From NCBI GenBank assembly GCA_017499595.2, contig CM038999.1:372001-436000 (forward strand): 64,000 nucleotides of DNA, in the 5' to 3' direction. Source of the DNA: Psilocybe cubensis (taxonomy: Eukaryota). This document shows positions 28,490 to 56,408 of the stretch, in pieces. The notes beneath the pieces are model-generated. The model had not been told where the DNA came from. It did no database searches and worked only from the letters and a program-made list of their open reading frames with translations. How positions within the stretch are numbered: position 1 is the stretch's first letter; each line of letters opens with the position of its first letter. The position numbers and the translations under genes are program-made.

Positions 28490-29999
28490 TCACGACGTTC
28501 CAGCATATTCCCATGTGTCAGCTGTCGATGTCCAGCTGCGGGAACGCCTCAGGTTGGTCTTCATCTCCTTTACGGTGACGATAGAGTTGAGTGAAATTAG
28601 TGATAGGGCCATACGCCTATAGTAGAGCCCGTAATCAGTCTCCCCAGTACGTGAAGAAGCAACAGAATAGGAAGATTTCCCATCAAAAGTGTTTGACAAG
28701 TTGCTGTAACGAGACGAAAGGGTATTGATAAATGATGTAGCATCCCGTGCGGTAACATATGAGGATAGGGAGGTTGCGCGGCTTCTCGTGTGAGGTAGCG
28801 TTGAAGGAGTAGAAGATGGGTTGAATTTATAGAATGGTGTTTCTCCTGAAGGATTTTGAACGGTCCGATATGGTTCTTTCTCTGATAACCCTGTGGACTT
28901 AACAACTTCATCCTCTATAGAGCTCTCCTCTTCCCAATCTTTTCGAAGAGGATCAAGCTCCGGAAAAAGGCTGAAAGCTAAAGTCGCCTTCCTGTTGATC
29001 ATAACGCTACCGAATGCTCCTATAAACAGAGATGAGTACAGCGCGAGGGAGGTTTGAATCCGACATCGGTGTTCCTCAAATATTGTCGCCCATTGATACA
29101 GTGTCAATTTACTAGATGGATGAGAGGGGTCTGATATAAATTCTGACGACATACTTTTCTTCAGTATTGGGCCACGAAAACAATGCACTTAAGCGGCTTA
29201 CGCTTCAACCTTCGAGAATAAAAAGGTGCGAGGAGTCTTGATTTGCATTCTACGAGATGGGCGTCCAATTCTGTGATTAGAGCCTCCAGATGATCGGCTA
29301 TACATACGCCGCTCTGTGTACGCGCGCCTTGCGGGGTATATGATTCTTCAAAACTGACAGGATTGATGAGTTAGGTGATATGATTGGATTTGTTAGGACG
29401 ACTGACATTAGACACACCCTTCTCACCTTCCCACTTCTAAAAAAGAATTCGATGTCCTTCTGCTGCGTCTTTCTCTTTCTTGGGGAGCTAATCCATTGAT
29501 CCTGGAGGTTGATAGCTATAGCAAAAAAGTTAGGTAATTGTCTCAAAATGCACATGTTTTCCTGATGAACTAGCCTGATAGCTGTGGGTTTAATTGGACC
29601 ACCAAATTGACATCCTTTGGGACCAAGTCCAACGTGTTGAGGTAGTCAGAGATACTCGTGATATCCATAAAACTAAACGCGGTATGCGGGGTTGAGATGA
29701 GGTCTGAGTGAACTATCAAAAATTCAAGCAAAGAAGACCATCTCATGTCCAAAAAATTGATTAGTAATGCTGGCGACCATTTTATCTTCCTTGGTTCGGT
29801 AAGACGTCGAGACTCTGGAATGCCTTCAGGTTACGAAGTATGTTTGGCTGAGATTTGGTATCACGTCGCTAGCGCGCTGGAGTAACGTACTTTGAGGTTT
29901 TTGATGCTTGCCTCCAGTGTCCGCCTTTCTCAGGCCTTCTCTATGGTCAATTAGGGCCGCGTTTACGCCAAATAGACGACGTCCTTCAGTATTATCCAT
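28490..29999 (-). CDS. Short paralog A: helical domain homologous to the N-terminus of the 9369-13901 protein, plus the C-terminal YSVASSRT motif
   Basis: Exons encode DMRWSSLLEFLIVHSDLIS, GVCIADHLEALITELDAHLVEC, WATIFEEHRCRIQTSLALY...FPEL and YSVASSRTGETDYGLYYRRMALS. One donor appears to be GC (gctagt) and another is ambiguous. Confidence 0.65.
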
Positions 30000-30477
30000 T
30001 GCGAAGGGTAAACAATTTTCCTGCATAAATTCCCACATGTAAGTACAAACTACTATGCGTTCGAATGGAATGAATACAATAGACAAACTAGTGCCCTCGA
30101 AGTGGGATATACGGCTAACAATGAAAGAACCTGTCCCAATCAATGGGTGAAGGTAGTTGTTGCTTAAGCAGTGCTGCAAGAAACACTGAAGTGAGACCGT
30201 CGCTATAGAGACCCAAGGAAGGTTAAAGTTATCACTGAGAAGCAACAGACATGCGTGGGTATCGAACAGCCTCTATGAGTCCTCCTGAGTCATGCTAATT
30301 GTACCTCGCATTATAGGTGAACGGTGTAATATTATCTTGAGTGAGTTCCCGCAACACGTCATTAGCTAAATCTGAATTGGTAGAACATATTTTACAGTAT
30401 TATTTGACGTAGTGTATAAAAATGTGCGTGGAAAAAAATTCAAGCTCTGCCTTGGTGTATCCCCAGGTCTACGTTCT

Positions 30478-31093
30478 TCAATACTCCTCTGACGTATGTG
30501 ACAAAGCTCTTCGTGTGTAAAATAAACCGTAGTCAGACTCATCTGTACGCGAGGAGGCAACTGAGTACGAAGTCAAACTCTCGGAGTCCGTTGAAACTGG
30601 CTGACTGAGATCATAGTACCGATGATCTGTGTGGTTTGCTGTGAGTAATATAGCCGCTTGATATGATATTTCGGGTTTTTGGAGGTTATGGATCAGACAC
30701 AAAATGCTCATGCGATCTCCGTAGGTATCATGCTAGGGGCCGAATGCGCGTCAGCCATTTTATCACAATTATTAAAGTAAGAAAAGTGATACTCACAAGA
30801 TTTTGCAGCCGGATGAGGTTTTCTTCCTTAGCAGTACTATTTTCTGCCCTAACTCGCTCCATAACCTCAGATATCAATGCCACGCTCAGTGCGTACCCAG
30901 CCACAGCGGCTTCGACATTTTCACTGCTGGAGTCGAGATCGACGGCATCGCGGGCATGTTCGAGCGACATTTTGAGGATTTCGCCAGAGGACCGAAAGAA
31001 TTCCTTTTGCAAGGACCTTCCTACGGTACTTTGGGAATTTGGATGAGCTGAACTGGCTATCGGTGAATTTTCCATAGGCGTTTCAACACCCAT
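30478..31093 (-). CDS. MIT-domain protein with the C-terminal YSVASSRT motif
   Basis: ILKMSLEHARDAVDLDS...AAVAGYALSVALISEVMERV...LIRLQNL|HDTYGDRMSIL is an MIT three-helix pattern. The GT-AG intron at 30733-30796 joins it in frame to YSVASSRTDESDYGLFYTRRALS. Confidence 0.75.
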
Positions 31094-31587
31094 ATCAGGG
31101 TAAACAAATTGCAAGGAGAGGTTAAGGTCTCTGACAAATGCACGTTCGGGTGACGTTTTCGGATGAAAAGTTTGAGAAGACCGCAAACAGGTGACGAGAC
31201 TTATTGGCTGCCAGTGAATTGGGCCACTTTTAACCCTGCTATTATACCCAGTGTGAGGCAGTGTTCATCATACGTAAGCGTACCGATTCATGGCAGTGCG
31301 ATACCAACATAGCATTGACTCTTGAGTCTAGTACAGCATTAACTGACTCCAAGCAGAAATGCCGCATGGGATAGACCCTTTGATGGTCATATATATTGCT
31401 CATCGCTCATTGTTTAAGCAGTTTTCTAAGTTCCGTAAACTCACAATTACTGACGTTTAGTATTGCCTAATATAGACATTTTATTGCTCTTTTCGTCAAC
31501 CACATACCCATTGTCACCCAGGGCTCCAGTAATACGAAGGAATCATTCATGGTTTTACTAATTATGGGGCTCACAATAAGTAATAGA

Positions 31588-33083
31588 TTACATTCTAACG
31601 GCCAAATAGGCGAGTCTGTGTTTGGCCCCAACGTCTGTCAACGAAGTTTCGAATGAAGATACCGAAAGCGCCATGCGGGTATAATATACTCCATAATCAG
31701 ACTCAAAAGTTCGTGAGGATGCGACTGAGTAGGGAGTTGAGTCGGCATGGATAGAGCCACTGTAACTACTGCCAATTACAGAGAAGGATGAAGTCCGGCT
31801 TCGAAGATGGGTCTTGGGCAAAGTTGAAAGGGGTGACGACGGATTGAATTTGCACAAAAGCACCTTTACGATCTTGTGCAGTATTTTTTATCAAGCTCTG
31901 CAGCTGATTTGATTTTAAATATGCGGGAGTCGAAGGCATATTTATCATGTTTGGTCAAACCCTTGCAAAATGGATCCAATTCTGGAAAAATGCCGAATGC
32001 CAAAGTGATATTCCCATCGATGAAAATATTTCCAGAAGATCCCAGATATAAGAACGAGTAAAGGGCAAGTGTGGTTTGAATTCGAATTCTGTGGTGTTCC
32101 AATCGCACCGCCCAGCTACATAGCTGAGATTCGTATCCAGTGGCTTGCGGAAGGAATCCTAAACACCCAGCTTGAGAACAAACTACAGGATATGTTGATA
32201 CGGTAATGCACATAACTTACGTGTCATGTGTTGATCATAATAATTACCCAAAAATGCTCCACACTCTTGGAGGTCGATATTTAAATTGGTGATTAAAGAC
32301 CGCAAATAGTCTGCGATGCAAAGTTCTTCTCCACCGTCTAGAGTATAGTGACTCTCGAATCTGTATTAATCACAACAAGACAGGGTCAGAAAATGAAGAT
32401 ATAATCTAATGGTAGAAGATTTGATGACTAACATCATGCACACACTTTGAATCTTCCCATAACAGAGAAAAAGATTAAGATCCTTGTGCTCTTCTTTCCA
32501 TTTTCGGGTTGGGGTAAGTTGAGAGTACTTGAAGTTGAATGCTATTATATTGAGAAATAGGTAAATTTCTGCTATGACAGTATTTAGATATTACCATTGC
32601 GTTGGGCGTACCTGTGTCATGTTTGGACTCGGATATTTCTAAATCAACTGTTTTCGGAGTTGACAATATGGTCTTTAGGTAGCTTGAGATAGACTTGATT
32701 TCCATAGGGCTGTACAATGGATACTTCGTCGAAATCAAGTCTATATTGGTTTGCACAAAGTCCGCCAATGGGGTCCATTGCGTGTTGAGAAAGTCAATGA
32801 AGCGCGATGGTAATAATTCTCCCTTCAATGACCCTGACAAGGGGTCACTGACTTGAGCAAAGATGAAAGGGTCCGACACAGTGAGAATATGTAGATACCC
32901 AAGTAATCTTGGCTCACTGAGGTCATTTCCCACTAGGATCGGAGCTTCTACGACGGCTGAAGATGATTGAGATACGGGATGCTCTTGTGCAACTTCATAT
33001 CTGTCGGATTCTTGACATTTCTGTGTCGCTTCGTATCTATGGGATTCTTGATCTTCATATATAACACACAGCGAATTGCTCAT
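31588..33083 (-). pseudogene. Short paralog B (helical domain + YSVASSRT motif) with a 1-bp frameshift; a pseudogene or an assembly error
   Basis: It encodes NTQWTPLADFVQTNIDLIS, LCIADYLRSLITNLNIDLQEC and WAVRLEHHRIRIQTTLALY...FPEL. The frame breaks at the A6 run (31884-31889), just before KFNPSS...YSVASSRTFESDYGVYYTRMALS. Confidence 0.65.
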
Positions 33084-33907
33084 TTTGATCGAAGTGTGTA
33101 GGAATGAAGTAGGACTGAAACCTTTCCAGAGCAATGTAACAAGATCAAACGTCGATGCAACTTGAAAAGGTGGAGGATCAGTGAGGAGTGCAGTGGCAAT
33201 GTGCTGGAGCGTGTACTTTGACAGTCAGGACTCATAACTGCTTATATGTGTGCACAAACATATCTTCAAATTTATGCCTGGAAGTAGCACATAGTCAAAA
33301 GCTTGCAAGTTGCAAGCATGCTGATCGATTATTGTTGCCGCCACAGCGCAGCCACTGTGCAGTGAGTGTGAGTGCACTGTAATTTTTCACAGTTTGAACT
33401 TTGAAAGTTGAAGCTTGAAGCTTGAAGGCTTGCGTGTCACACTGCTAAAAATATACCTGCCAGCGCAAGCTGTTGCGGCAGCACTATGTAAAGTCTAATA
33501 ATACTAACGCGATCATCGGGATTCAAACTGACCTAGAGATTCAAATTCCCGTTTCTTGCCCCTCTGACACTGAGTTTTTCCCAAATCTTTTTGCACATTC
33601 AAGTGTAGATTGTACGCAGGTATATGAATATGCAAAAACATTACAAAAATGATGCATGGAAAGGTGCTAAATTTGATGATCTTCAGCCATCCATCAAGTT
33701 AACATGGCATCAAATTCCAATTTCTGTTTTGTCCACTTATGCTATCAACACAGAAATTGGTACACATCTTTATAACAGTATCAAATCCTTGTCTGCAGAG
33801 TGTCATCCAGCAAAAACAGTTCCTTGATTTTCCAGATGCCAAACGATGGAAATAGTGACATCTTGTAAAGTCACATTGATGTGTTTAAACTCTGTCTGAA
33901 ACGTGTC

Positions 33908-34627
33908 CACTGTGGGCTCCGATACATGTTTGATGTCAAACATCGACAATCAAACAGATATTATGTAGGATATAGATGTTTGATGTCACGCACATATTGT
34001 GTTTGACAACAAACATGCTTCAAACATAAATTGTGTTTGAACTCTGTGTGACATCAAACACCAAATATGTTTGAGCACTGTTTGTTAAAAAATATTAGCC
34101 TGATATAATTCCTGTTTGAATAGCTGTATGATAAGGTTCTGTAAGAGATCAACCATAAAATCCGTATCTTATCTAACATGAATATCAAACATATTTTAGG
34201 TAAGCATTCAACCAGAATATTTGTCCGAAATCAAACAATTATCAAACATCCATTTTTTCTCGAATCTGATTAGTTCATACATATATGTTTGGCAATCTGT
34301 TTGATTTCGGACAAATATTCTGGTTGAATGCTTACCTAAAATATGTTTGATATTCATGTTAGATAAGATACGGATTTTATGGTTGATCTCTTACAGAACC
34401 TTATCATACAGTTATTCAAACAGGAATTATGTCAGGCTAATATTTTTTAACAAGCAGTGCTCAAACATATTTGGTGTTTGATGTCACACAGAGTTCAAAC
34501 ACAATTTATGTTTGAAGCATGTTTGTTGTCAAACACAATATGTGCGTGACATCAAACATCTATATCCTACATAATATCTGTTTGATTGTCGATGTTTGAC
34601 ATCAAACATGTGTCGGAGCCTGCAGTG
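33908..34627. mobile_element. Non-autonomous foldback element with CACTG...CAGTG termini (CACTA/EnSpm-like) and a 3-bp TSD (GTC)
   Basis: Two ~330-bp near-perfect inverted arms (33908-34237 and 34298-34627) flank a 60-bp spacer. GTC lies at 33905-33907 and 34628-34630, and there are many internal CAAACA/TGTTTG subrepeats. Confidence 0.85.
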
Positions 34628-35281
34628 GTCGTGTCCGGTGTAATTGACCGCAACTTAGATAAAAAAGTTCCACTTCATGTTGATGCAACTTACGCACATT
34701 TGGCTTATTATACGTGATACTCTTGGAACTTTTACATACATTACCTTTACACATACATGCTAGCATCTGTAGTCTTAACCTTTTTTTCAATGTACATAGT
34801 CTCTACTAAGAAGCTTTATAACCGGTTTATACCCTTCCTCAGACTCAAGAGTGTGGTACTAGGGAACATACGAAGATACAAAACCGACCGAGGCCTTGTC
34901 GCCTCAAGTCGGATTGTTCTGATCGTACGTGTGCCGTCTGAGCTTGAAATCGGCACGGTGACTACGTGTGACGAAAAATTTGAATCTCTATGATTTTGGG
35001 TCCTTGCTGCCGCGGAAATGCTCCTGTTCCTCATCCGTTTGCGCTGCGGGCTTAAAATTTGAAATTAAAGGAGTGTATATGCTGTAATAGTATTGTGCAA
35101 AGTTTGACGCAAGGAAGGTGAGTGTATGTTCTGTTTCAAATATTTGAATCTCCCTGATTGTGATAGTAAGTAAGACTGTAAGAGCATGCCATTTCGCACT
35201 CCGCCTAAACTTTTACTCCCGCGGACCGGAACTAGTATAGCCGCACCGTGACTGCGGCGATTGCCGTGTACACCCATTGCG

Positions 35282-35911
35282 ATGCTCTCACTCGTGAAAT
35301 ACCTCCTTCTCCTCGTTCTTCCAGTTTCTTATCTCCTTCGCCGGCGCTTCCCTTCGCTGTCGTTCAAACTGTCGAGTTCCACTCCAGTACAAATTCCAGC
35401 GGAAGAAAATCCTGAGAAACCGCTCAAGACCATCATGCAGGCCCCTCGCGATGACTTGGCACCCCCCAAAGATGATCCATTTACGACGGAAGAGCTGAAG
35501 CAGTACGACGGTTCAGATCCTACTAAGCCTATATATGTCGCTATAAAAGGTGAGTTCAAGTTGTACTCGGATGCTTTAGGTCGTTCTGAGGGTTGTACCA
35601 TGCGCGTAGGAACTGTTTTTGATGTTTCGAGCAAGAAGGATGTGTACGGTCCGGGCAGGTCATACAGTGTTTTCTCCGGAAAAGATGGCTCTCGTGGTCT
35701 CGGAATGTCAAGTCTGAAGCCAGAGGACGCTGTGGCTGACTACAGCACCCTCGACGCTAAAGATATGAAGGTGTTAGATGATTGGCACGCATTCTTCTCG
35801 TGAGTGGTGTTTCAGAATTTCAATCTATCAAGCTATTGAATTTTCTTGGAAAGGAAACGATACAATATTGTTGGAAGGGTTACAGATGGACCAGTCATTG
35901 AAAGCCAATAG
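35282..35911 (+). CDS. Cytochrome b5-like heme/steroid-binding (MAPR family) protein
   Basis: FTTEELKQYDGSDPTKPIYVAIK|GTVFDVSSKKDVYGPGRSYSVFSGKDGSRGLG...LDDWHAFFS|KRYNIVGRV, with an N-terminal hydrophobic segment and 2 introns. Confidence 0.9.
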
Positions 35912-38312: not shown

Positions 38313-39099
38313 ATGACCACACTCAACGTTACGAATCTGCCTTCGGAATTACAATCTTCACCGTCTCTGGTCTCCTCATCTTCCAACAACCTATCCAACA
38401 CATCACATCCTACTTTATTAAATGTACAACATGATCACAACTACCCTCCGATACCTCCCTACTCTTTCCATCCTCCGAATGACATACGTATATCGATAAC
38501 AGCACCAAGTCCTGAGCAAGAAGCAGACATTGGCGATTCTGATCTGCAACGGTATATGACTGCGCACGACCGTCATGGAAACATAGGTGTATCCCGACTC
38601 GTTGCTGACGACCTGTTATCGCTGCGATCGAGCCAAGGCCCTCCAGAAACCTTGCCCGCTTATGACTCCAATGTACCACCTTCGTACCGGCGACCAATCG
38701 CAAACGCTCCAAAAGAACCTCAAACTTTAGCCATGCATTTTTTCAAATTTGGGTTTTGTACGTTGATTCCTCCATAGTAATCTAAGTCAACTTTTGTTTA
38801 AATTTTGCCTTGAAGTCTTCCCTGCGTTTTGGGTGTTTGGGGCATTGATGCTGATAACACCGCTCCGCTCCGATCCTCTCTCTCCTGGCGCGCAGCTTTC
38901 GGTTTGGCCTCCCAACACGGCGTTTGAGGAATGGTGCAATGAGGATGCTCGATCGGAGGAGGAAAAGCGTGAATATTTGGCGAGGATGCAGGAAGTAGAA
39001 ATGAAATGGGCCAAACGATGCCTGATGGCTCTCGGGGTACTGGGCTGTTTTGGTATTGCCATCGGGGTGACGATATTTGCTGTGTTGAAGGCCCAGTGA
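38313..39099 (+). CDS. Hypothetical membrane protein with PY motifs (LPAY, PPSY)
   Basis: Two exons. EPQTLAMHFFKFGF|..FPAFWVFGAL is followed by EMKWAKRCLMAL and a C-terminal TM helix. Confidence 0.75.
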
Positions 39100-43414: not shown

Positions 43415-43681
43415 TTAGAATTTAGAGTGTTGTTTACGTCTTCCTATGTAGATATGAGTGAAAATAGACCAAAGAGAACAAGCTTGTTGGGGCGAGATAT
43501 CAGAAAGAGTTTGAACGGATCCACAGCTGTGCGTCACGCTGCAGATAGTCGGTGACAAGTGTGACGAGGTTTAATCACCACGTGAAACTCTGCTGATAAG
43601 ATTAGATTAATTACATACCTTTCCAACTTAAAGATATCATCAATGACTCGGATCATACCTTGCAGCGTATTAGACTCGACT

Positions 43682-43820
43682 CCAGTCTAGTTGGGTGGAA
43701 TACACTTACTAATAGTATGTACATGTTGTATCCGAATACCTAGCCACCAAAAATGCCAAGAATTGTATTTGTTCCCAAATCAGTAAAACCCGGGTTGGGT
43801 ATTCCACCTAACTAGACTGG
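43682..43820. repeat. 139-bp element bounded by 22-bp inverted repeats (MITE-like or hairpin)
   Basis: ccagtctagttgggtggaatac (43682-43703) pairs with gtattccacctaactagactgg (43799-43820) with 1 mismatch. No clear TSD. Confidence 0.7.
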
Positions 43821-43974
43821 TGGGGATTTACCGTAAAGCAGTGCGTGGATGTTTTAAACTCCGTCTACCCTTTTTCGGACACGCATCAGATGCGCATCAA
43901 TGATTCACGTGCATACGCGTCAACGCGTCATCCCCTAATTACTGTTTAACTGGCCGTTTAGCCTCACGAAAAAC

Positions 43975-46900
43975 ATGTCGTACCCTACTCCCACCTCGCC
44001 GCGCAGGTCGCGACCCTATAACGATGAAAACTCAAGCTCGCCGTTGATGATTCGTACCCCCAACAATCCATTTCGAAGCCCGCTGACCGATCTGTCAAGC
44101 CAAACTAGCCCAAACTTCTCCACACCCGGTGTCAGCCACTTTTCTCAGCCCCTGCTGTACACGTTCGTTTCCACGCCTGCCATTGCTACCCCAAAACCTC
44201 GAAAAAAGCGTCGTGTTGCTCAAAATGTCTCGCCGAACACTAGACGACGACTTACAGAAGATTGGCAAGAGCGAAATAGTGCTTCTGTGGAGATGCAAAA
44301 AGAGGAAGAGGATAGGGATAATCGGGCCAAAAAGACCCGAATGCTTGACGAGGCATTTAAATCGATACGAAAGGCGGGTTTCCCAACGTTTCGGCACTTC
44401 TTGGAGGACGCACTTACCGCTCACGACCCCTCTCAAGCATCACAAATATCTCAACTTGTCAAAAACCACGGGCCCGCCTTGTTTTCTTTAGGTCGGAAAT
44501 TGCAGCCCGCCATCGTCGATGACTGGATTATTTCTTCACACCGAGAGCTTGTCAGCATGCAGTGTAAGGCACTGGCAGAGCTATTTCAGCCGCCGCAACT
44601 GTCCAGAGTCACGGATACGCTTTCTCATTTCTCAATCAAGCAGTACCTTGCTGATGCGGAACGTGTAGCACCTTTAATATGTGACATTCTTCGACAAATT
44701 GGCTACCCGAACGGCGCTCGAGAGTCAAAATACAAGAACCGTGAACTGGTAAGTAAAATTCTAGCAACTATTCTTCGATATTCTACTCAATATACATGTA
44801 TTCTAGATCATTGCAACCGCTCTGTGTATGCTTGCAAAGTCACGAAACGAGCATGCTACAGAGTTTCAAACAACAATGGGCATGTACTTTCTAGCGTCTG
44901 GAACTCAAAGCTCTCTGTTTGCTGTTCTCAACCATGCGGGCATTTCATTATCGTATACTCAGGTGATTTTGAAGCTAAAGCAGCTATCTCAAGAGCGGCT
45001 CAAGCTTGCACAGACTATTGCTCGACTCCAAGCCTTTATGCTTATTTGGGACAATTTGAACTTTAGATTCATTGTTGCTGAGCAGCGTCATGATGCAAAG
45101 TCGCATTTTGACAGTGGAACAACTGCTACAATGGTGCCATTATATGGTTTTAAACACGGCGAGCTTTCTTGTTCTTTAAAGCCTCCCCGTTTGCGGCATG
45201 TCTTAGAACTGGATATAAAAGCTGAAGACCTTTTACCGAGTGCCGAAGAAGCTCTTCGAGTTCAACAAGCGCAAATCTGGCACATTTCCGATATACTATA
45301 TGATGCGTTTCCAGATCTACGAAAGCGTATAGCTAAGACTATTCCACCTTTTCCTTCCGTGCTGCAGATTCCACTCCACAAAACTGAGCAATATCCGCTT
45401 CCAGCAATGCATATCGATGAATCAAGCCTCGACGGCACACTACAAGTCTTTAACTCCATTCTGAAGGACTCGCTAAAGCTGACCGAAGAGGAACTCAAAG
45501 CTCATGGACTGATCATTTGCGCCGGAGATCAGTTGTCGTTATCACTTCTTGACAAGGTATGTCGATGCTTATGTACTACAAATATTATTGTTTACAATTA
45601 CTTCTATCAAGGTGTCTGCAATCCGTCGAGATGATACAGACTTTATGGATAACATTGGCAAATATACGCTAGGTCAAGACGGCCTTCTTCATGTCAAGTT
45701 CTCGCACACGCGAATGGTTGCTAATGAGTACTGGGGTAAACCGAACTCAAAATCACCGTGGTCGCTATGGAGAATCAACACGCTTCTAGGGCGCAAGCCT
45801 GTCTGCGCTGGATGGACAGCAAAATCTCCTGCTCCGTTTCGGCCTATATGGGAGCTTATTTTGAATCTCACGCTGCCGGCTCATATTCTTGATGCGTTTC
45901 GCATCTTTTGTTCTGAAGAAACTGTTGAAGCGTGGGTGAAAAAGGTTGATCATCATGATACAATTGCTCTTGTTGCCCAAAAGATACATGACGAACTCTG
46001 TTCAGGCCACCGAGTGGCCCAGCTTCGTCAAGAGAGGGCTATCAAACGTGACGTACCTCTTGAAAACATTATCTTGTTTAATCGTGATGCTTTGCACCTT
46101 CGACAACTCAAGTATGCGATCAAACAAGGTGATGTGGGTGCCGTTTTGGACCTTATTACTCATTTAATGCTCGCCTTTCGAGGAACGGGACATACACCTA
46201 AATATGCTGATGCATTATTTCACATTGTCATCAATTTAAAGCGGATGGATCCATTGCTTCGGTAAGACATTATCCTTTCTATTTATGATTAGAATGCTAA
46301 TGTTATAATTTAGACGTGCCTGGCTGTTTAACTGGCTTGCAAATCTGACCGGTAAACCCAACGGTTTCAAAGAGATGGATCTTCTTCAAGAACATTTAAA
46401 TTTTTGGCTAAAAGTATGTTTAACAATCTTTTTATTCTAATTGGACTCATAAATTAGTATTACTAGGTAATATACAGTGCCAAGGGTGTTAACCGAACGT
46501 GGGCATGGCTGAGCATGGTCTCCGTATGCATATTTGCGCTTCGAGACGTTATTCGCAATGTGCGCGAGGAGTTTTCAATTCCATTTAACAGCATACGTCA
46601 TGCTATGCCATCAACATCAACAGACGTAAACACAATCCGCACCTATCTTCAGGCCCATCGACTTCAAGAATTCTGTCCAGCTAGGGAAAACAATGCCGCT
46701 GCAGTTGAAGCACGGGATCTCATGGTAATAGGTGCTCATTATGCTAACAAACCAAGTGCGTTTCGCAATTTCCGACATACAAAGTTCAAAACAAAAAATC
46801 ATGGTAATGCTGGCGAGCCAGATTGCGTATCCGCTGATGAAGCAGAAGATGAAGAGGCCCAATGTTCGGGTAATATTGACGTGGGAGAAGACCTTGAAAC

Positions 46901-47012
46901 TGGGCTCGAAGACTTGCTTTTGGATGAAGAAGAATACCCAGAGGGTTTAGATGCGGAAAATGTTTTTGCTGCGGTTAATGAGATTATAAATGAAATGCGT
47001 AGTTTAGATTAA
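43975..47012 (+). CDS. DUF6589-like protein (putative RNase-H-fold DDE transposase), 5 exons
   Basis: Motifs LIWDNLN, PAMHIDESSLDGT, AGDQLS, GLLHVKF, GHTPKYA and EMDLLQEHLNFWLK are present, and the spliced frame appears intact. Confidence 0.8.
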
Positions 47013-47031
47013 GGTGAGTAACTATATATTT

Positions 47032-49304
47032 CTAACTACTATCGCTCATATTACCACTTTCATCGCTTTCATAGATTGTATTCATATTAAATTCTGTTGC
47101 CACTGTACACCATATAAGTGGAACTTGAGGTAACGCATCCGAGAAAACGTGAGCGGTTTTTGGCTTTTTCCATTTTAATGAATTTGTGCTGGTAGGCTGC
47201 TGTTGCTTGCGCTGCAAATGTTTGCGAGCTTCGATTGGCTGGTTTTGCTGATCAAGCACTTCGTAAATGACTTCTAACTGTTGTATAAGCATACGTCCAA
47301 GCTCATTTGGACCACCTGTTTCTTCATTATGCCCCCGGTTCCATCGCACGTGAGCACAAAGTGTTGTATAGTCACGAACCGATTCTAATCGATGACCGCA
47401 GGTTGAGATGGTGGCAATGGTTTTGTCGGAAAGAATCAAAGACCCAGAAAGGCTAGTAATACCTGGGTATACCTTTCCAAAGAGGATGGTGTCGCGCCAT
47501 TCCGTAAGTTTTTTTCGAATGTATGCAGCTTCTTCATCCGGAACCTTTTTCTTCTTTCCTCGCTTTAAACCCTTTACCAATGGTACGGATGATATTTGAG
47601 GTACAAGAAACAAATGTGGCTGACAGTTGTCACAACAGCGTACATTGTTTCCTGGTCGATATGTGCTTGTGATTCCATAAATTAAACCAACTCAAATATT
47701 ATACTGTTAGTATATTATATTGTTCAAACATTTAACGCACACTCACGTTTCTTGGAATTTTGAAAAAATCTATTCCAAATGATGCGCCGGCATAATTTGG
47801 TCTGTGCATAAAGCAAAAGTGCCCGCCGTTCATGAATGTTGGTTTCTTTACCAAAACGTTTCAGCCGTTTTGCAGGAGCTGTTGATTTTTCTTGACGTAT
47901 CCCTTCTTCATCAACATCTTCCGTGACTTCATTATGCTCAATGGTCTCAGGTTCAGCTACTTCCAACTCGAAAATGGAATTAATTTCCGCAGGTGAATTG
48001 GATACATTTTCTTTCATCACGCTTTGCGGAATAATCATTATAGCTTCTCCCTGAGTATCCAAGTCACGGGCAGCTCTACCAGCCTCCTGGACAAATCCAC
48101 AAAAGGTAAGTGAAAGCCCCCATACAATAACTCGGGAAATGTTTCGATAGTCGCATCCCTATATGTATAAATGTAAGTAACCACTAATTAAATGGTACAA
48201 GAAAGAAATTTACCATTCCAAGTGCAGTAGTAGTAAACAAAATGCGAACCTTGCCTTTTCCGAGTAGAGATTCTAGCTCGCGCTTTTTTTTCTCGCCTAG
48301 ATAGGCATGATAAAAAGCAATGCAGCTTGGTATAATCCCTTGCTCGTTAGCCCAATCTCGAGCACGATCTGCACATATTTCTGCTATATCTCGTTGATTA
48401 CAGTATACCACTGAAACCAAAATGTCGTCAGGACAGGTTGCATTTTCAGGAATCAGAAAGCGAAGATCTGCTTTTGATTCATCTGAATGCTTCATAACCC
48501 GAACAGACAGAGCAACATTTGGTCTCTCATTAGTAACTGCAATTGTGCGCACCTCTTTTGTTAGACTAAGAGTGCTTTTAACGTTGTCAAGAATGTGATC
48601 TGGAAAGGTTGCTGATGCCACTACAATTGGTACATTGCGTGGAAGCCTGCCCCGAAGTATACCTAGTTGCTGATACTCAGGACGGAAAGTACCTCCCCAC
48701 ACTGTGATGCAGTGTGCTTCATCAATGTTTACAGCACGTAGTGCATCAGTGAATGAAACCTTCATAAACACTTCACGGTGAAACTCTTGAGATACAATAA
48801 TCTCAGGAGACACAATGACATGCCGAAACTTCAAGTTAACAATATCCTATTAATAATTAGAGTGTTATATTGATTTAAATTAGACTTGTGCTTGAAATTT
48901 TACACATACCAAATACATTTGGACCTTGCCAACACGGATAGCAGTTTCTTGACATACTGCAATGGTGGGAATAGGACTACCATTGGCCTACATGACTCCT
49001 CAATTAGAGTTTATTAAGAGAAACACCTAAAAATTACCTGCTCTATCATCAAGGCTGACAATGGAGATACAGTCACAGATACTGTTGTCTCATCAAGCAG
49101 CAAGGGCAGAATAAAGCATATGGTTTTTCCACATCCCGTTCCAACATCAAGAATAAGATCATGGCCACACAATACCGTTTTTGCGGCATCAAGTTGCCAC
49201 TGAAACGGGCGCCTATCAAGAACCTCAAGCGCCCTTTGAGCAAGAAGAGAGATATTAAAATCTTCCTCCTTGTATATCTTCACTCTGGACTCGGGTGGGG
49301 ACAT
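47032..49304 (-). CDS. RecQ-like (SF2, DEAH) helicase, transposon-associated type
   Basis: PFQWQ, GTGCGKT (Walker A), IDEAHC, ASAT, FYHA, TTALGM|GCD, QEAGRAARD and a Zn-binding CRR...CCDNC. Confidence 0.88.
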
Positions 49305-49514
49305 GAAATTAGGACCACAAGAGTGGCCTATATTTTCGGGGTTCTTATAAATAAAACTTGTTAAATTTCAGGCTTCAAAGTATTCCAAAAGTACAGAAAC
49401 GAGATTGAGGTGACTGGATCAATCTTGTTCCTCATCTTTGTATTGTGAATTACATGCGAATTTTGGGTGCTTTTATTCACAATATTTGAGCAGTAGACTT
49501 CCATTATATGCTAT

Positions 49515-49901
49515 TTAATATTGGTTATACTTACACAGATTAGAACATATGTATTTGGGTAAACGATACAAAAGTTTTGCAAAGGTACGAACGCCAGGGG
49601 TTTTGATTCCCAAAATAGATAGACGGAGTTTAAAAAGTCCATGTACTGCCTCACGGTAAATCCCTTCCAGACGATCTGGTACGAATATCATTGATGGGAT
49701 ACCCAATGCGGGTGCAACCCGTTTTCGGACAAGATCGGCTGGGGTCGAGACTAGCAGCGTATTAGGTCCAAGATGATCTTCACCAGCGAGCAAAAAAGTG
49801 TCCTGATCCACAGCAGGTTTAGAGCCTGGAAAATTAAGGACGGAATGTGATATGTGGTTCATGTCCAACAAGCAAGAAGTTTGGTTAGTGTGTGTGTGCA
49901 T
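49515..49901 (-). CDS. Hypothetical protein upstream of the RecQ gene (first exon only; 3' end unresolved)
   Basis: A 128-aa ORF with non-repetitive sequence and a gtaagt donor close to its end. Confidence 0.4.
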   Translation of the reverse strand: MHTHTNQTSCLLDMNHISHSVLNFPGSKPAVDQDTFLLAGEDHLGPNTLLVSTPADLVRKRVAPALGIPSMIFVPDRLEGIYREAVHGLFKLRLSILGIKTPGVRTFAKLLYRLPKYICSNLCKYNQY

Positions 49902-50533
49902 AATTTCAGGAAGTTCAGTGAGTTATCTAAAGAAAGAAGCTCAAGAATCACGTTGATAAGGCAGATAAGCAAGTGTAAGTAGCTAAGTACATGATTGCGA
50001 GCGGATCGAAGGAACCTTCTCTAGGGGTGAAGACCGCGACCCAACAAAAGCCAAATTGTACGAAGCATTTTCTCTAGTTTCCGAAGCCAAAAAATCCACC
50101 TTCCTTCTCGTCTTTCTGCTCCTTCAATTATCTTTTAGATTGTAGTGATATTTTTTATTGTTCATTGTGTACTTTGTAGGAGTCCATTTGTCATTTTTAC
50201 AGATTAATGTACCGATTGAGCTTGACTCAATAAGACGTTGTTTTTCTATGTTTAATGATATAAATAACTACTGTTCCATAATTTATTGTATCGTTCTTCG
50301 TTTCACGTATTGTAATGCTCTAACTACATGAAAATCCCCGAACTATAATCTAATCAGTAACGAGCCACATGATATAGGGGTAGATAATCAGCGTCATGAT
50401 CTAATCAAGTTTCAATTTGAAATTTGTTTTTTTCATTGCTTGCCCAGTGCCCATCGTCTACAGCGGTAATAGCAGGTAAATATCCAGTTTTCCAAGGCAA
50501 ATTTGCTCTCAACCTCAGTCTAACTTCATAGAA

Positions 50534-53500
50534 ATGCTGGTGCTTCCAGGTTCCTCTTCTGTCTCAAAACCGAAGCTCGAGACACTCCTAGGAAGCATCC
50601 AACAAAAATGTGCAAGGATCGCGTCCGTTGACGCTGTCTGGCTTCATCTCGTTCAATGCAAAGGCTCTCAGCAAGAGGAGGACCTCAGGAATATCACTTC
50701 CAACTATAAATCTTTGCTTGATCGCCTCTTGACATACGGCGATTACTCTTCTTTCCCCGGAACGTTGGACGCGATCGCACAGGCAAAAAATGTGGCTTAC
50801 GTCCTACCAAGGCCAGGATCCGTTTCACCGTGGTCGAGCAAGGCCACAGATATCGCTATTCTGTGCAGACTGGACGGTCATGTGGAGAGGATTGAGCGGG
50901 GCAACGTGTTTGTGTTCACGACAAGGGACGGACAGGCTATCACAGAACAGGAGGTCGCGACGTTCTCTCACCTGCTTCACGACCGTATGACACAGTCTAT
51001 CGGGCTTTCACCACCCGTTGAATCCCAAATATTCTTCCACAATGAGCCCAAGCCTCTCCGCATCGTCGATCTCCAATCCGCCTCGGATGCTAAAGCCAAA
51101 CTGGTCTCAGCGAACGTCGAGTTGGGACTGGCGTTGGCCCCCGCAGAGATTGACTATCTCATTGACGCGTACGCCACGATGGGTCGTGACCCTACCGACG
51201 CCGAACTGTTCATGTTCGCGCAGGTCAACTCGGAACATTGTCGCCATAAAATTTTCAATGCTTCATGGACTATTGATGACAATCTGCGCTCTAACTCACT
51301 GTTCCAAATGATTCGCAACACCGAGAAGATCAGCAGCAAAGGGACGATCTCTGCCTACTCTGACAACGCAGCTGTGCTCGAAGGACATTCGGCCCCTCGA
51401 TTCAGTGCTTCTACTTCTGATCATGTCTACGGAGCCAAGAAAGAAGATATGCCCATCCTCATCAAAGTGGAAACCCATAACCATCCTACTGCGGTATCTC
51501 CCTATCCTGGCGCAGCTACCGGTTCAGGTGGCGAGATTCGCGACGAAGGTGCTGTCGGACGGGGATCAAAACCAAAAGCTGGCCTTGCTGGATTTACCGT
51601 CTCCAATCTTCTCATTCCTGGCTTCGAGCAGCCTTGGGAAACCGATTTCGGCCGCCCTACGCACATCGCCTCAGCGCTTGACATCATGATCGAAGGACCC
51701 TTGGGAGCTAGCGCGTTCAACAACGAGTTCGGGCGACCAGCGTTGACGGGCTACTTCCGCACTTTCTCGGAGAGCGTCCCCCTCTCCCTCGATGGCCAAG
51801 AGCGCGAGGTTAGAGGGTATCACAAACCCATCATGATCGCCGGAGGATACGGAAACGTTCGTCCACAATTTTCAAAGAAGACGGGAATCAAGGCTGGTTC
51901 GAAGATCGTCGTGCTGGGAGGTCCAGGTCTGCTCATCGGCTTGGGAGGAGGTGCTGCTTCCAGCCAGGTTTCTGGTGCGAGTTCAGCCGAGCTCGATTTT
52001 GCCTCGGTACAGAGGGACAATGCAGAGATGCAACGTCGGTGTCAACAAGTCATCGACGCGTGCGTGAGCGCCGAGGTCAATCCGATCGAGAGTATCCACG
52101 ACGTCGGCGCTGGAGGGCTGTCCAATGCTCTTCCTGAGTTGGTGCATGACTCGGATTTGGGCGCGATTTTCGAGATTAGAGATGTTCTCGTGGCGGACTC
52201 GTCGATGTCCCCTATGGAGATCTGGTGTAACGAGAGCCAGGAACGGTATGTTTTGGCTGTCGCCAACGACCGCGTTGACGACTTTGTGGCGATTGCAAAG
52301 AGGGAGAGATGTCCGTTCTCCATCGTCGGTGTCGCGACTGAGGAACAGGAGCTCATCGTTACGGACCGTTTGCTCAAGAAAGACGTCATTAGGCTGAAGA
52401 TGTCGACTCTTTTTGGAAAGGCGCCAAAAATGCAGAGGCGGGACACCACACGCAAAATTGATCGCGCAGAGTTTGATTCTTCCCTCGTCACATTGCTTCC
52501 CGATGTCGCCCACCTCTCAGAGCGTCTTCCTCAGGCTGTGGAACGAGTTCTTCGTCTTCCCTCTGTAGGCTCCAAGTCTTTCCTCATCACCATTGGCGAC
52601 CGCACAATCACGGGTCTTGTCACAAGAGACCAGATGGTGGGCCCGTGGCAAGTTCCTGTCGCTGACGTCGCCGTCACCCGCTCTTCATATGGCTTTGATG
52701 TTCAATGTGGAGAGGCTATGGCCATGGGTGAACGCACTCCTCTTGCATTGCTAAACGCGGGTGCTTCCGCTAGGATGGCCGTCGCAGAATCTCTTACCAA
52801 CCTCGTCGCTGCTCATGTTGGAGACATCTCCAATATTAAACTGAGTGCCAACTGGATGTGCGCCGCTTCGAAGGAAGGCGAAGGTGCTGCGTTGTATGAG
52901 GCTGTCCAAGCTATCGGTATGGATCTGTGCCCTGCTTTGGGTGTCGGAATCCCCGTGGGCAAGGATTCCATGTCGATGTCTATGAAATGGCGCGAGGGAA
53001 CCCAGCAGAAGGAAGTCAGCGCGCCTTTGTCGTTGATCATTACGGCCTTCTCTCCCGTTACCGACATTCGCAACACGTGGACTCCCCAGATCCGCACCGA
53101 CATTGGCGAACCAACAAGTCTCGTCTTCTTTGACCTTGCCCATGGGAAGCAGCGCCTGGGTGGATCGGCGCTGGCGCAAGTCTTCAAAGAGATTGGTGCT
53201 GAAGCACCCGATGTCGAGGACCCCGCCGTCCTCAAGGCCTTCTTCACTGCGTGCCAGAATATCAAAGCGAACCATCCAGATTTGGTTTTGGCCTATCACG
53301 ATCGTTCCGATGGTGGGCTGTTCACCACCATCGCCGAGATGGCTTTCGCTGGTCGTGTTGGCGTTGAAGTTTCTCTTGATGCTGTTCACTCTACTCGTGA
53401 TCCTATTTCAACTTTGTTCAACGAGGAGTTGGGCGCTGTCGTCCAAGTCCGTCAGTCGCAGCTCGATGAACTTATCGCTGCTTTCAACAATGCGAATTTC

Positions 53501-54562
53501 CCTTCCACTTCCATCCATGTCATCGCCAGTGTGAAATCACCATCTGACGAGACGATCACAATAATCTATCAAGGCCAGAACTTTTACAGCGCACAGAGGG
53601 CTGACCTCCAGAAGCTATGGTCTGAAACCTCGTTCAGAATGCAATCCATTCGAGACAACGCCACTGGTGCTGCCCAGGAATACGCTCTCATCAGCGATAA
53701 GTCGCATACTGGTCTCTTCTATGATTTGACGTTTACTCCCTCGCCCATGCCCAATTTCGTCAGCCGCCCAAAGGTCGCTATTCTGCGCGAGCAAGGTGTC
53801 AACGGTCAGGTGGAAATGGCGTGGTCGTTCACCGCTGCTGGCTTTGACGCCGTTGACGTCCACATGTCGGATATTCTCAGCGGCAAGGTCAGTCTCGTCG
53901 GTTTCAGAGGTCTCGCTGCATGCGGTGGGTTTTCGTACGGAGATGTTCTCGGAGCTGGCAAGGGATGGGCTAACTCTGCGCTGCTCAACGAAGTCGCACG
54001 TCGTGAGTTTGCCGATTTCTTTGCCAACGAAAGTACATTCGCCCTGGCAGTGTGCAATGGTTGTCAGTTCCTCAGCCACCTGCGCGAGATCATCCCTGGG
54101 ACGGAGAACTGGCCCGAGTTTAAACCTAACCAGAGCGAGCGCTTTGAAGGTCGTGTGTCTATGGTGGAGATCGTCGAGAACGACATCACCCGCAAATCCG
54201 TATTTTTGTCTGATATGGCTGGATCGAAGCTGCCTGTAGCCGTCGCTCATGGAGAAGGAAGGGCGGCATTCGCAAACGATACGCAGAAGGATTCTCTGCA
54301 TGCGGATGGCCTCGTTGCTATCCGGTATATCGACTCTCAGGGGCGACCTACAGAAGTGTACCCCTTGAATCCAAATGGAAGTCCAGCTGGGGTTACTGGA
54401 GTGCAGACGCCGAACGGGCGTGTTCTAGCTATGATGCCTCACCCAGAGCGTGTGGCAGCTATGGAGAGCAACAGTTGGTATCCCCAGTCGTTGAAGGAAT
54501 CTTGGAAGGGAACGGGTCCTTGGTTTACACTTTTCCAGAACGCGAGGAGATGGTGCAATTAA
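50534..54562 (+). CDS. ADE6: Phosphoribosylformylglycinamidine synthase (FGAM synthase, large PurL type)
   Basis: 1342-aa uninterrupted ORF with NSEHCRHKIFNA, KVETHNHPTAVSPYPGAATGSGGEIRDEG, glutaminase GGFSYGD / VCNGCQ and MMPHPER. Confidence 0.98.
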   Translation: MLVLPGSSSVSKPKLETLLGSIQQKCARIASVDAVWLHLVQCKGSQQEEDLRNITSNYKSLLDRLLTYGDYSSFPGTLDAIAQAKNVAYVLPRPGSVSPWSSKATDIAILCRLDGHVERIERGNVFVFTTRDGQAITEQEVATFSHLLHDRMTQSIGLSPPVESQIFFHNEPKPLRIVDLQSASDAKAKLVSANVELGLALAPAEIDYLIDAYATMGRDPTDAELFMFAQVNSEHCRHKIFNASWTIDDNLRSNSLFQMIRNTEKISSKGTISAYSDNAAVLEGHSAPRFSASTSDHVYGAKKEDMPILIKVETHNHPTAVSPYPGAATGSGGEIRDEGAVGRGSKPKAGLAGFTVSNLLIPGFEQPWETDFGRPTHIASALDIMIEGPLGASAFNNEFGRPALTGYFRTFSESVPLSLDGQEREVRGYHKPIMIAGGYGNVRPQFSKKTGIKAGSKIVVLGGPGLLIGLGGGAASSQVSGASSAELDFASVQRDNAEMQRRCQQVIDACVSAEVNPIESIHDVGAGGLSNALPELVHDSDLGAIFEIRDVLVADSSMSPMEIWCNESQERYVLAVANDRVDDFVAIAKRERCPFSIVGVATEEQELIVTDRLLKKDVIRLKMSTLFGKAPKMQRRDTTRKIDRAEFDSSLVTLLPDVAHLSERLPQAVERVLRLPSVGSKSFLITIGDRTITGLVTRDQMVGPWQVPVADVAVTRSSYGFDVQCGEAMAMGERTPLALLNAGASARMAVAESLTNLVAAHVGDISNIKLSANWMCAASKEGEGAALYEAVQAIGMDLCPALGVGIPVGKDSMSMSMKWREGTQQKEVSAPLSLIITAFSPVTDIRNTWTPQIRTDIGEPTSLVFFDLAHGKQRLGGSALAQVFKEIGAEAPDVEDPAVLKAFFTACQNIKANHPDLVLAYHDRSDGGLFTTIAEMAFAGRVGVEVSLDAVHSTRDPISTLFNEELGAVVQVRQSQLDELIAAFNNANFPSTSIHVIASVKSPSDETITIIYQGQNFYSAQRADLQKLWSETSFRMQSIRDNATGAAQEYALISDKSHTGLFYDLTFTPSPMPNFVSRPKVAILREQGVNGQVEMAWSFTAAGFDAVDVHMSDILSGKVSLVGFRGLAACGGFSYGDVLGAGKGWANSALLNEVARREFADFFANESTFALAVCNGCQFLSHLREIIPGTENWPEFKPNQSERFEGRVSMVEIVENDITRKSVFLSDMAGSKLPVAVAHGEGRAAFANDTQKDSLHADGLVAIRYIDSQGRPTEVYPLNPNGSPAGVTGVQTPNGRVLAMMPHPERVAAMESNSWYPQSLKESWKGTGPWFTLFQNARRWCN

Positions 54563-55024
54563 AATGCCATGGTATGTGGTCACTTTCTCCCGCGTTCACG
54601 TTTCATTATTGAAACAGTTATATTTTTAACAGTTCGATTGGCGATAATGTATTATACTAAATTATAAACTGTGGAGCTAAAGTTTATAACATGAATCATG
54701 GAAATGCTGAAAACAATATCTGGTATTTACTCATCAGCTATGGCTGTCACTTTTTATCATTGAATATCTAAAGCAAAGCAAATTATACATTCCATGATTA
54801 GAGATTCATCAAATCATTGACATGCTATGTGATGTGGTTGTAGAAGTCATTGGGTGTTATTTGAGCTACTTATAACCGAGCGCTGCTCCAGATATGTTCG
54901 TCTACGTGACCGCGTGGGGAATCGTGGCCCCGCTCGTCTAGAAAGCTTATCAACGTCTCCCTTGAACTTCTTCTCTAAACCAAGAAATATGCTCATAAAT
55001 TCCACAGATCCCACTCATTTCAAT

Positions 55025-56408
55025 ATGAGCGGTACATCATATTCTGTCCTTTTTCCTGTCGAACAACCTCCACGGGAATCAGGATGCGGCTCGTTCTCTA
55101 GTAAAGACTATTGGGCTTCTCCATTCGTGGGGTCTCTGGAAGGCTTGCAACCCGGTGCGCTGCATAACATCCGCTAAAGTGATATTGAATATCTTATTAC
55201 CACCAAATAAACAGACAGTTTTGCATCAAGTCTCAGAAAGCTCCCTTCAAGCCGAGACGAAATTTTCCACGTCATAGAGAATTCAGACACGGAGTGGCCG
55301 TCGCTATTAGACTTTGTGGAGAAGTACTCAGCCCTGATTTCCTCTCGTGCCCAACACGTACAAGGACTCAATAGGAAGATTCAGGACTTCATTGATACTA
55401 AAGTCTATGAAGCAAAACTTCCGGCTTATTGGGGGAATCTGATATCGAATAATGGTTTGTACATCTTCTCTTTCAAAGGCTCTATGCAATAAATGACTAT
55501 GGTTAGCCTCGACGTCTGTCAGACATGGTTACACGCGAGAGGAGATTGATGAAGCTTTCTTATACCTCGAACTTGAGGTGCGAGATATGGGAAAGTTCTG
55601 TGCTGCGTGAGTAAGTTCGTGTTCTTTGCAAGGCAAACTCGTATAGGGAGATCTTTTAGATTTGCTCAATTCTTTCAGCCTGGCCGTGTAGAAAATTTAA
55701 AACCGATATCAATAGCAGACCAAATGATACCCCTCATTGTCACAATCGCAAAAGATGGCAAGGAATGTGACCTTATTGTGAAAGATTATTATGCTTCCAA
55801 AGTTAAACGGTCTTTGTGTGAGTATAATTCCATCAACCTTTACACCACTCATTGGTGTTGATAGTGGGTACACAGACACACAGCTTCATATCGACTACGT
55901 ACCGCAGATATCATCATGGGCCATCAAACTCAACTCTCACAGACTCCAGCTACAGCTTTCTCTGGCAGCTTACTTATCCTTGAGGTCGTTTGACGGGCCA
56001 ATTGGTACAGAGTTTGGGGCAGACTTTATTTTATTCTTGGGATGCAATATTTTCCCGGAATTACGCACGGATGGCCTTTTCCATGCTGATATACCGCGGA
56101 GTATCAGCCTGGAAGAAGCTCTTGATGTGGATGAAGAGTTCAACTTGGATTCTTTGAAGGATACAATTCTAAATTCTTGCTCTTTGATTCCACCAACCGA
56201 ATTGAATTCGCCTTGTTGGCGCCTTGACCTCGCCAAGAAGTATTTTTCAGTCACCAGTGCCATATACTCACCGTCAGATTCGTCAATATACTCAGTAGCT
56301 TCTTCGAGAACAAATGAAACGGACTACGGAACACATTATAGGAGAATGGCACTCTCTATATCTTCATTGGATAGCTTGCCTGCGTCTTTAGATATAATTG
56401 AATTATAA
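55025..56408 (+). CDS. Short paralog C: helical domain + C-terminal YSVASSRT motif
   Basis: 5 spliceable exons encoding DTEWPSLLDFVEKYSALISSR, ISIADQMIPLIVTIAKDGKEC, WAIKLNSHRLQLQLSLAAY...IFPEL and YSVASSRTNETDYGTHYRRMALS. Confidence 0.7.

Follow-up and report, generated by a model that had tools for sequence, protein, structure and literature searches.

A conserved C-terminal tail on otherwise unrelated signalling-type proteins of Psilocybe, Galerina and Gymnopilus, examined from a four-copy locus of Psilocybe cubensis

INTRODUCTION

A 64,000-nucleotide stretch of the Psilocybe cubensis genome (assembly GCA_017499595.2, contig CM038999.1, positions 372,001 to 436,000 of the forward strand; hereafter the window, in whose coordinates all positions are given) contains a set of short, highly diverged genes whose products end in nearly the same peptide. 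An initial annotation of the window had described three of these genes, A, B and C, as truncated paralogs in which a shared helical domain is followed by a Ser-rich linker and a conserved C-terminal motif, and had suggested, with fungal cell-death effectors in mind, that this motif may act in activation, as a phospho-switch or in assembly. The question raised by the locus is whether the motif belongs to these duplicates alone or to a larger set of proteins, and what a tail of this kind might do. Here, we report that the motif recurs at the C-terminus of a wide range of proteins in a narrow group of fungi, and we favour, tentatively, the reading that it is part of a lineage-specific, probably phospho-regulated docking tail that is read by one shared partner.

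RESULTS

Four copies of the motif in the window

Translation of the three intervals assigned to the motif in A, B and C gives, in each case, a 23-residue peptide of the form YSVASSRTxE[ST]DYGxxYxRMALS, bearing out the motif positions of the initial annotation, and the ATG and stop codons at the limits that it gave for the three genes are likewise present. Its count of three was one short, as a six-frame pattern scan and tblastn with the terminal exons find exactly four core matches in the 64-kb window, with no fifth copy in any frame. The additional copy ends a gene, D, that lies between A and B.

28601 to 28669, minus strand: motif copy A, YSVASSRTGETDYGLYYRRMALS
30499 to 30567, minus strand: motif copy D, YSVASSRTDESDYGLFYTRRALS, five residues before the stop codon and absent from the initial annotation
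31663 to 31731, minus strand: motif copy B, YSVASSRTFESDYGVYYTRMALS
56289 to 56357, plus strand: motif copy C, YSVASSRTNETDYGTHYRRMALS
28493 to 28831, minus strand: full tail of A, comprising an SSYVTARD block (28745 to 28765), the core motif and an RRSRSW block (28532 to 28546)

At the DNA level, the copies have 45 to 48 of the 69 motif nucleotides in common. By Nei-Gojobori counting over the four copies, the proportion of synonymous differences (pS) is 0.79 to 0.95, which is saturated, and that of nonsynonymous differences (pN) is 0.12 to 0.20 in all six pairs, so both the synonymous codon differences reported earlier and the purifying selection on the peptide that had been read from them hold for every pair. 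The comparison of motif with linker that had been proposed at that time points the same way: between family members, 19 to 21 of the 23 motif residues are identical, while identity is 35 to 81% in the helical core and 7 to 43% in the linker. Outside the motif (41 to 86 bp, 70 to 78%) and the helical core (129 bp, 66%), the four loci show no DNA similarity, and no flanks or terminal repeats are common to the four. Given the saturated synonymous sites, the low pN and the lack of common flanks, the four copies are, on this sequence evidence, old paralogs in which the peptide motif has been held constant.

Reach, consensus and taxonomic range of the tail

An HMMER search of 1.84 billion representative proteins with a profile built from eight tails (A1) gave 70 matches at E<=1e-3, 10 of them at E<=1e-10; one of the 70, P0064, a 936-residue metagenome repeat protein, was rejected as a false positive. 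A word-indexed search with a second, broader profile of 18 tails (A3) gave 58 matches, including 11 new proteins, where A1 had earlier given 24. Because 16 of the 23 motif columns are invariant among eight tails and tail-profile E values run from 1e-36 to 1e-9 against a database of this size, a chance origin of the motif is excluded. The resulting set of 84 proteins (P0004 to P0087) comprises 75 that fit the strict core pattern, seven close variants recognized by eye, one that ends before the motif and the one false positive. The motif is clearly not confined to the duplicates of this locus, as it is carried C-terminally by about 80 proteins with more than 12 unrelated N-terminal architectures.

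The consensus of the 75 strict motifs is x-Y-S-[LVI]-A-S-S-R-T-x-[S/T/E]-T-D-Y-G-[LIV]-[YF]-[YFA]-[TR]-R-[MWR]-A-[LI]-S-Q, followed by [ED]-[TS]-[IL]. R8 and T9 are present in 75 of 75, a count in which the selecting pattern had itself fixed R or Q and T at these positions. Three residues on from the invariant Arg, position 11 is occupied by Ser in 53, Thr in 10, Glu in 10 and Asp in 1 of the 75, and the core ends in S-Q in 55 of them. At most 45 residues follow the motif in 66 of the 75 proteins (median 21), and 14 of the 75 carry a block of basic residues, Ser and an aromatic residue (RRxSW-like, for example RRRSWDSF) near the C-terminus. Other blocks seen in the tails are an S-[FIY]-Y-S-x-[IV]-S element upstream, in 19 of 76, and an ALDLA-like element. 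The column counts agree with the earlier observation that the motif lacks an N/Q/G-rich composition: it has one invariant Gly, no Asn, and Gln only at position 25, and it is dominated by Ser, Thr, Tyr and Arg.

All 58 named matches come from three genera: two from P. cubensis, 11 from Psilocybe cyanescens, 27 from Galerina marginata, 10 from Gymnopilus dilepis and eight from Gymnopilus junonius. This count sets aside 20 matches from Logan, ENA or JGI records, six without a look-up and the window's own. The range is narrower than the agarics at large to which the initial annotation had looked, with Psilocybe placed in the Agrocybaceae, Galerina and Gymnopilus in the Galerinaceae, and all three in the Agaricineae. 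The genes also cluster. Aside from the four tail genes in this window, four motif genes of P. cyanescens (CVT25_003566, 003568, 003572 and 003573) lie on one 100,644-bp contig, and five Galerina matches with a BTB domain lie on one 426,585-bp contig.

The earlier suggestion that the motif may be undescribed agrees with these searches. No Pfam-A model matches the tail (window exons; P0005 in the scan of 70 proteins; 10 proteins at E<=1), a search with the tail alone in the ESM Atlas gave no usable match, and no published description was found among the papers listed for the motif strings or for gene families of Psilocybe, Galerina and Gymnopilus.

Carriers of the tail

The domains attached to the tail are mostly of a signalling type. 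Pfam assigns 37 families to the 70 profile matches, 25 of them among the matches listed, and it is among these that BTB was found in eight proteins, G-alpha, Pkinase, RasGEF and USP8_dimer in two each, and Kelch, RhoGEF with PH_10, POLO_box, PAH, MSP, SH3 and UCH in one each; neither NACHT nor NB-ARC was found on the 70 matches within the same 25 families. NT-C2 occurs outside that scan, and the broader profile adds FYVE, more ubiquitin-specific protease (USP) and more G-alpha domains. By their source names, further carriers are a Git3-like receptor, PH, ubiquitin-like and CRIB proteins, and P0085, listed as 'Fungal N-terminal domain of STAND proteins'.

Four enzyme-like carriers were aligned to relatives of solved structure, and each has substitutions at positions that we take to be catalytic in its family. 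In P0065, aligned to MARK3, HRD is replaced by HGN and DFG by GLG. P0057, aligned to PLK1, has Asn for the beta3 lysine and NFG for DFG. In P0054, aligned to USP28, the catalytic His is Glu and, in a weak part of the alignment, the Cys-box Cys is Ala. P0070, aligned to G-alpha t/i, has Thr for the switch-II Gln, Lys for the switch-I Arg and TKVD for NKxD. These proteins would be pseudokinases (P0065 and P0057), a pseudo-deubiquitinase and a GTPase-deficient G-alpha, respectively. Since the four substituted carriers stand beside the truncated genes A, B and C, the data suggest that the tail is typically joined to copies that are competent for binding and inactive.

The tails that have Glu or Asp at position 11 form a subtype that cuts across these architectures. 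Its carriers include the helical A/B/C family, gene D, the NT-C2 protein P0010 and P0014, a CRIB-domain protein by its source name. The N-terminal architectures involved are unrelated and number at least four, and all named cases are from Psilocybe. The subtype of the tail tracks genomic neighbourhood or lineage and not the N-terminal domain. Together with the clustering of tail genes, this points to a spread of the tail through local duplication and the swapping of 3' ends.

The helical region and gene E

The helical region common to A, B and C was recovered, with the three proteins aligned over ...W(A/T).(K/R/I)(L/F)(E/N).HR...Q..LA.Y...FPEL, and so was the Ser-rich linker, in that the combined frequency of Ser and Thr in the 40 residues upstream of the motif is 0.28, compared with 0.17 over the remainder of the proteins. 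The helical region recurs in a much longer gene, E, of which it forms the beginning.

9324 to 13901 (limits approximate), plus strand: gene E, long and multi-exon, with homology to the A/B/C helical region in its first part

By tblastn, residues 56 to 167 of P0011 match 9381 to 9761 (E 4e-17) and residues 22 to 171 of P0008 match 10186 to 10680 (E 5e-5). A six-frame scan finds the tail motif in none of the frames of gene E, and no Pfam family reaches its cut-off there. Since their helical region opens a long gene that has no tail, A, B and C are, as far as homology tells, truncated paralogs of the longer gene to each of which the tail was added, in agreement with how the initial annotation had described them. 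The later exons of gene E look EF-hand-like (Pfam E 0.067, below cut-off) and, by eye, Cys-rich and zinc-finger-like.

The proposed link of this region to HeLo, HELL or MLKL-type domains fared less well. No HeLo, HELL, MLKL-like or Goodbye domain was matched by Pfam at E<=1 in the window exons, P0011 or P0015. Leads from the ESM Atlas (Goodbye, DUF7708 and NACHT_N) are weak, at 0.83 to 0.86 against a bar of 0.9, and the AlphaFold model of P0015 (mean predicted local distance difference test score, pLDDT, of 48) is confident only in a helical hairpin at residues 179 to 251, with a weak helix over the second half of the motif. A fold search (VIA-align) returned generic hairpins only, at Z up to 8.3, and an hhalign comparison of the family alignment with P0085 aligned the motif alone. 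A HeLo or Goodbye identity is therefore not supported. The same applies to an MIT-like reading, made by eye, of the N-terminal part of the gene D product, which has no Pfam match and no match in a sequence search of the PDB. BLASTP of this part against the two USP8_dimer carriers aligns the motif alone, and the AlphaFold model of the protein (mean pLDDT 66) has no Foldseek match at E<=0.001.

Structure of the four tail genes

The gene models were compared with contigs from three runs: X1 and X2, which we could only guess to be RNA, and X3, which contains the whole stretch unspliced. The comparison covered the A/D/B stretch, with gene C left out.

28490 to 29999, minus strand: gene A, helical region, Ser-rich linker and tail; corresponds to JR316_0001639 (P0004), with the last exon 100% identical
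29516 to 29574, minus strand: 59-nt GC..AG intron within gene A, spanned by the 29575/29515 joint of one X1 contig
30478 to 31093, minus strand: gene D, 183 residues; exon 1 31093 to 30797, intron 30796 to 30733, exon 2 30732 to 30478
31588 to 33083, minus strand: gene B, helical region and tail in different frames, with an apparent frameshift or unusual intron
55025 to 56408, plus strand: gene C, colinear with CVT25_003573 (P0015) of P. cyanescens

Splicing is supported for A and D, in which contigs of the two putative RNA runs join across introns. Gene A is covered by X1 and X2 contigs over 28695 to 28938, 29202 to 29333 and 29440 to 29658, which include the exon ending at 29202, where a GT donor is predicted, and likewise the last exon. 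The database model P0004 (320 residues) uses a junction that conflicts with the contig joint 29575/29515, and two of its middle exons are read in other frames than in the homologs P0005 and P0011; it looks partly mis-spliced. At position 28908, one X1 contig has G where the window has T, probably a strain difference. Gene D starts with an ATG at 31093 and encodes a small helical N-terminal part followed by the tail; its 64-nt GT..AG intron is joined at 30797/30732 by X1 and X2 contigs alike, exactly as predicted, and the last 142 residues of its product are covered by the database record P0013. P0011, P0008 and P0005 match A and B by tblastn, and residues 60 to 392 of P0015 match gene C over 55253 to 56363.

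Gene B had been taken for a simple intact gene, and here the frames of tail and helical core are shifted and no ordinary intron joins them. The frame of the helical core (32216 to 31866) ends in a stop, and the open frame of the tail (31887 to 31588) is a different one. Full enumeration finds no GT..AG intron of 40 to 250 nt that restores the frame, by which an 87-nt GT..AG intron considered as a rescue was rejected, and the only GC..AG candidates of that length that join the frames, 15 in number, all have poor donor sites. The related protein P0007 is colinear through the point at which the frame changes. Given this relative and the lack of a GT..AG rescue, gene B has probably suffered a recent one-base frameshift, or the assembly is in error there. 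No contig of X1 or X2 covers gene B; X3 has the same letters as the window, and may come from the same DNA source.

Neighbouring features

Between the A/D/B cluster and gene C, the stretch from 43939 to 48846 looks like a transposon-like insertion, with three consecutive plus-strand open frames that match DUF6589 (E 1e-25, 5e-50 and 2e-8) and a DEAD-helicase-like frame on the minus strand. Directly upstream of gene C, a single open frame of 1360 residues (50480 to 54562, plus strand) encodes a product that by eye resembles phosphoribosylformylglycinamidine synthase of purine synthesis. An open frame at 35252 to 35803 (plus strand) has a weak match to a cytochrome b5-like heme/steroid-binding domain (E 3.6e-4, below the Pfam cut-off).

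DISCUSSION

What might a tail of this kind do? The reading that we favour, tentatively, is that of a docking tail with a shared partner. The motif would be the core of a C-terminal tail, disordered and some 60 to 110 residues long, that arose in the lineage of Psilocybe, Galerina and Gymnopilus and moved onto many unrelated signalling-type proteins, mostly as genes were duplicated locally and swapped their 3' ends, with several of the recipients being truncated or catalytically dead paralogs. As a short-linear-motif cassette, the 25-residue core would be bound by one common trans-acting partner, and binding would be tuned by phosphorylation, at R8-T9-x-S/T11 in the core and, in a subset, at RRxSW near the C-terminus, such that dozens of otherwise unrelated proteins would be brought under one control. 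We infer the existence of the partner, the phospho-regulation and the mode of spread. What leads us to a linear-motif cassette is the disorder-like setting of the tail (pLDDT below 50 in both AlphaFold2 models, those of the gene D protein and P0015, from small alignments), its strict C-terminal position, the conserved Ser, Thr and Tyr residues by an invariant Arg, the alternation of S/T with E/D, the RRxSW block and the unrelated domains to which all of this is attached. An R-[ST]-x-S/T pattern of the kind found in mode-I-like 14-3-3 sites and in the targets of basophilic kinases is present wherever position 11 is Ser or Thr, in 63 of the 75 motifs, as a pattern only. A phospho-switch, as suggested in the initial annotation, or a docking role would fit these conserved patterns.

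Several points weigh against this reading. The shared partner and its binding are hypothetical. A near-invariant core of 25 residues is long for a phospho-site or a motif of the 14-3-3 type, and such a length could also be explained by self-assembly or by folding upon a partner. All 11 tails with Glu or Asp at position 11 fall in one subgroup of Psilocybe and may go back to one inherited change, which argues against repeated phospho-mimicry. The four copies of the window lack the S-Q ending, having L, V, I and H instead, and C and D have no RRxSW block. The pseudoenzyme pattern comes from four chosen carriers, namely both kinase-domain matches, one of two USP matches and one of four G-alpha matches, and the taxonomic range depends on which proteomes are in the databases and on profiles built from the same genera.

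Two alternatives are variants of the shared-reader view and differ from it in what the reader does. The tail may be a shared degron, read by one E3 ligase, possibly after phosphorylation, by which the carriers would be degraded jointly, as might happen at a developmental switch. A low-confidence, probably disordered C-terminus with conserved Ser and Thr beside basic residues would suit such a role, as would the nature of the carriers, which are mostly regulatory proteins and dead paralogs, possibly removable inhibitors, and many of which, being BTB or USP-like, belong to the ubiquitin system. We nevertheless consider a degron unlikely: the reading ligase is hypothetical, and known degrons are usually far shorter than 25 conserved residues. 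The tail may also be a targeting signal that takes its carriers to one subcellular site, such as the hyphal tip, the septum or septal pore, or a membrane domain. Many carriers do resemble proteins of polarity, septation or trafficking (the Cdc24-like RhoGEF with PH_10, a Cdc25-like RasGEF, Polo-like and MARK/AMPK-like kinases, Kelch, SH3, FYVE and MSP proteins, and the Git3-like receptor named as such at its source), but hydrophobic and lipidation features are lacking in the tail and PAH/Sin3-like, USP-like and similar carriers do not suit a single site, so that targeting, too, is an unlikely account. The functionless alternative, in which the tail is what remains of a mobile element or of a captured 3' exon, or arises from faulty gene prediction, is by far the least probable. 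It could draw on the lineage restriction, clustering and frequent truncation or degeneration of the proteins, on the element with DUF6589 and helicase frames at 43.9 to 48.8 kb and on the apparently broken gene B. A relic is contradicted by the selection pattern, with the peptide under purifying selection across saturated synonymous sites; the motif also lies in frame after the spliced junctions of the contigs from the two putative RNA runs, and it is found in proteins predicted independently in five genomes. A mobile-element origin was rejected in particular, as the loci share no DNA beyond the coding motif and helical core, and no flanks or terminal repeats.

Self-assembly is a further alternative, assembly being among the roles that the initial annotation had named. 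In this case, the core would form a beta-hairpin, an amyloid-like unit or a condensate unit, and the tail proteins would co-assemble. The fungal amyloid motifs associated with NOD-like receptors (NLRs), such as HRAM, PP, sigma and PUASM, are alike in being conserved C-terminal motifs of 20 to 30 residues on diverse proteins, lineage-restricted and often clustered, and the layout seen here is that of the effector side of such signalling, as far as the available part of the source describes it (PMC9815663). Aromatic and beta-branched residues abound in the core, and P0085 has its STAND-related source name. The receptor side of the scheme did not materialize: among the 84 proteins, no NLR-type NTPase carries an N-terminal motif and the sole Walker A is that of a G-alpha, and the earliest start of the motif is at residue 32, in a fragment of 107 residues. 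The G/N/Q-rich pattern of the known motifs is absent, AlphaFold predicts neither a beta-arch nor a confident strand in the tail, and the carriers are of a signalling or pseudoenzyme type, not pore-forming or lytic effectors of the HeLo, PNP_UDP or lipase kind. On these grounds we regard self-assembly as improbable. A predicted complex of four copies of a 62-residue tail, made with the alignment unused, scored 0.01, which speaks neither for nor against homotypic binding. The tail motif may bear a likeness to two Agaricales motifs of the NLR side, NLR20 and NLR29; the part of the source at hand does not mention Psilocybe, Galerina or Gymnopilus (PMC9815663). As a separate observation, positions 11 to 17 of the motif, STDYG[IL][FY], also occur in c-type lysozymes, in a segment that, from what is accessible of the sources, has been studied as an amyloid-forming core (PMC3584918, PMC9916845); this is probably a coincidence.

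Parallels to the tail are also found in other systems. ESCRT-III (endosomal sorting complex required for transport III) proteins have C-terminal MIT-interacting motifs (MIMs) that are read by MIT domains. They resemble the tail as short C-terminal motifs of a protein set with a common reading domain, and two tail carriers have the MIT-like USP8_dimer domain; they differ in that the tail only loosely resembles MIM1 and the MIT-like reading of gene D is unsupported. A 14-3-3 site is far shorter than the 25-residue core. The C-terminal 14-3-3 motif of the plant BTB protein NPH3, to judge from the accessible part of its description (PMC8531446), shares with the tail a probably disordered C-terminus, R-x-x-S/T patterns (here R8-T9-x-S/T11 and RRxSW) and a BTB setting, many tail carriers being BTB proteins, but the two are not homologous, and the tail has an E/D-11 subtype.

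Pseudoenzyme paralogs and decoys offer a further comparison. Decoy domains are known from plant NLRs as integrated decoys. The likeness is in the dead kinase, G-alpha and deubiquitinase copies expanded in one lineage, and the difference is that these copies are joined to a short common tail and not to an NLR, with any link to immunity being hypothetical. One may speculate, and we think it quite improbable, that the tail marks a lineage-specific decoy or sensor network, in which dozens of truncated or dead copies of core signalling proteins (G-alpha, Polo-like, MARK-like, Cdc24/Cdc25-like GEFs, USP and BTB) would serve as baits that report to a common reader, as a form of non-NLR surveillance or allorecognition of mushrooms in which the tail would take the role played elsewhere by amyloid motifs or TIR domains.

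The kind of element described here, a modular tail or linear motif shared among proteins, is known; this particular motif is the one for which we found no Pfam family or paper. It is of immediate use as an annotation marker, as it points out genes that have been mis-modelled, for example JR316_0001639, and small ones left unannotated, for example the full form of gene D. The spread of the tail would also be a clean natural case of a linear motif crossing a proteome by the exchange of 3' ends, with pseudoenzyme paralogs recruited together by means of it. If one 25-residue tail does place about 80 otherwise unrelated regulators under a common reader, it would constitute a young, lineage-specific layer of signalling control, in a lineage that includes both the psilocybin producers and the deadly Galerina.

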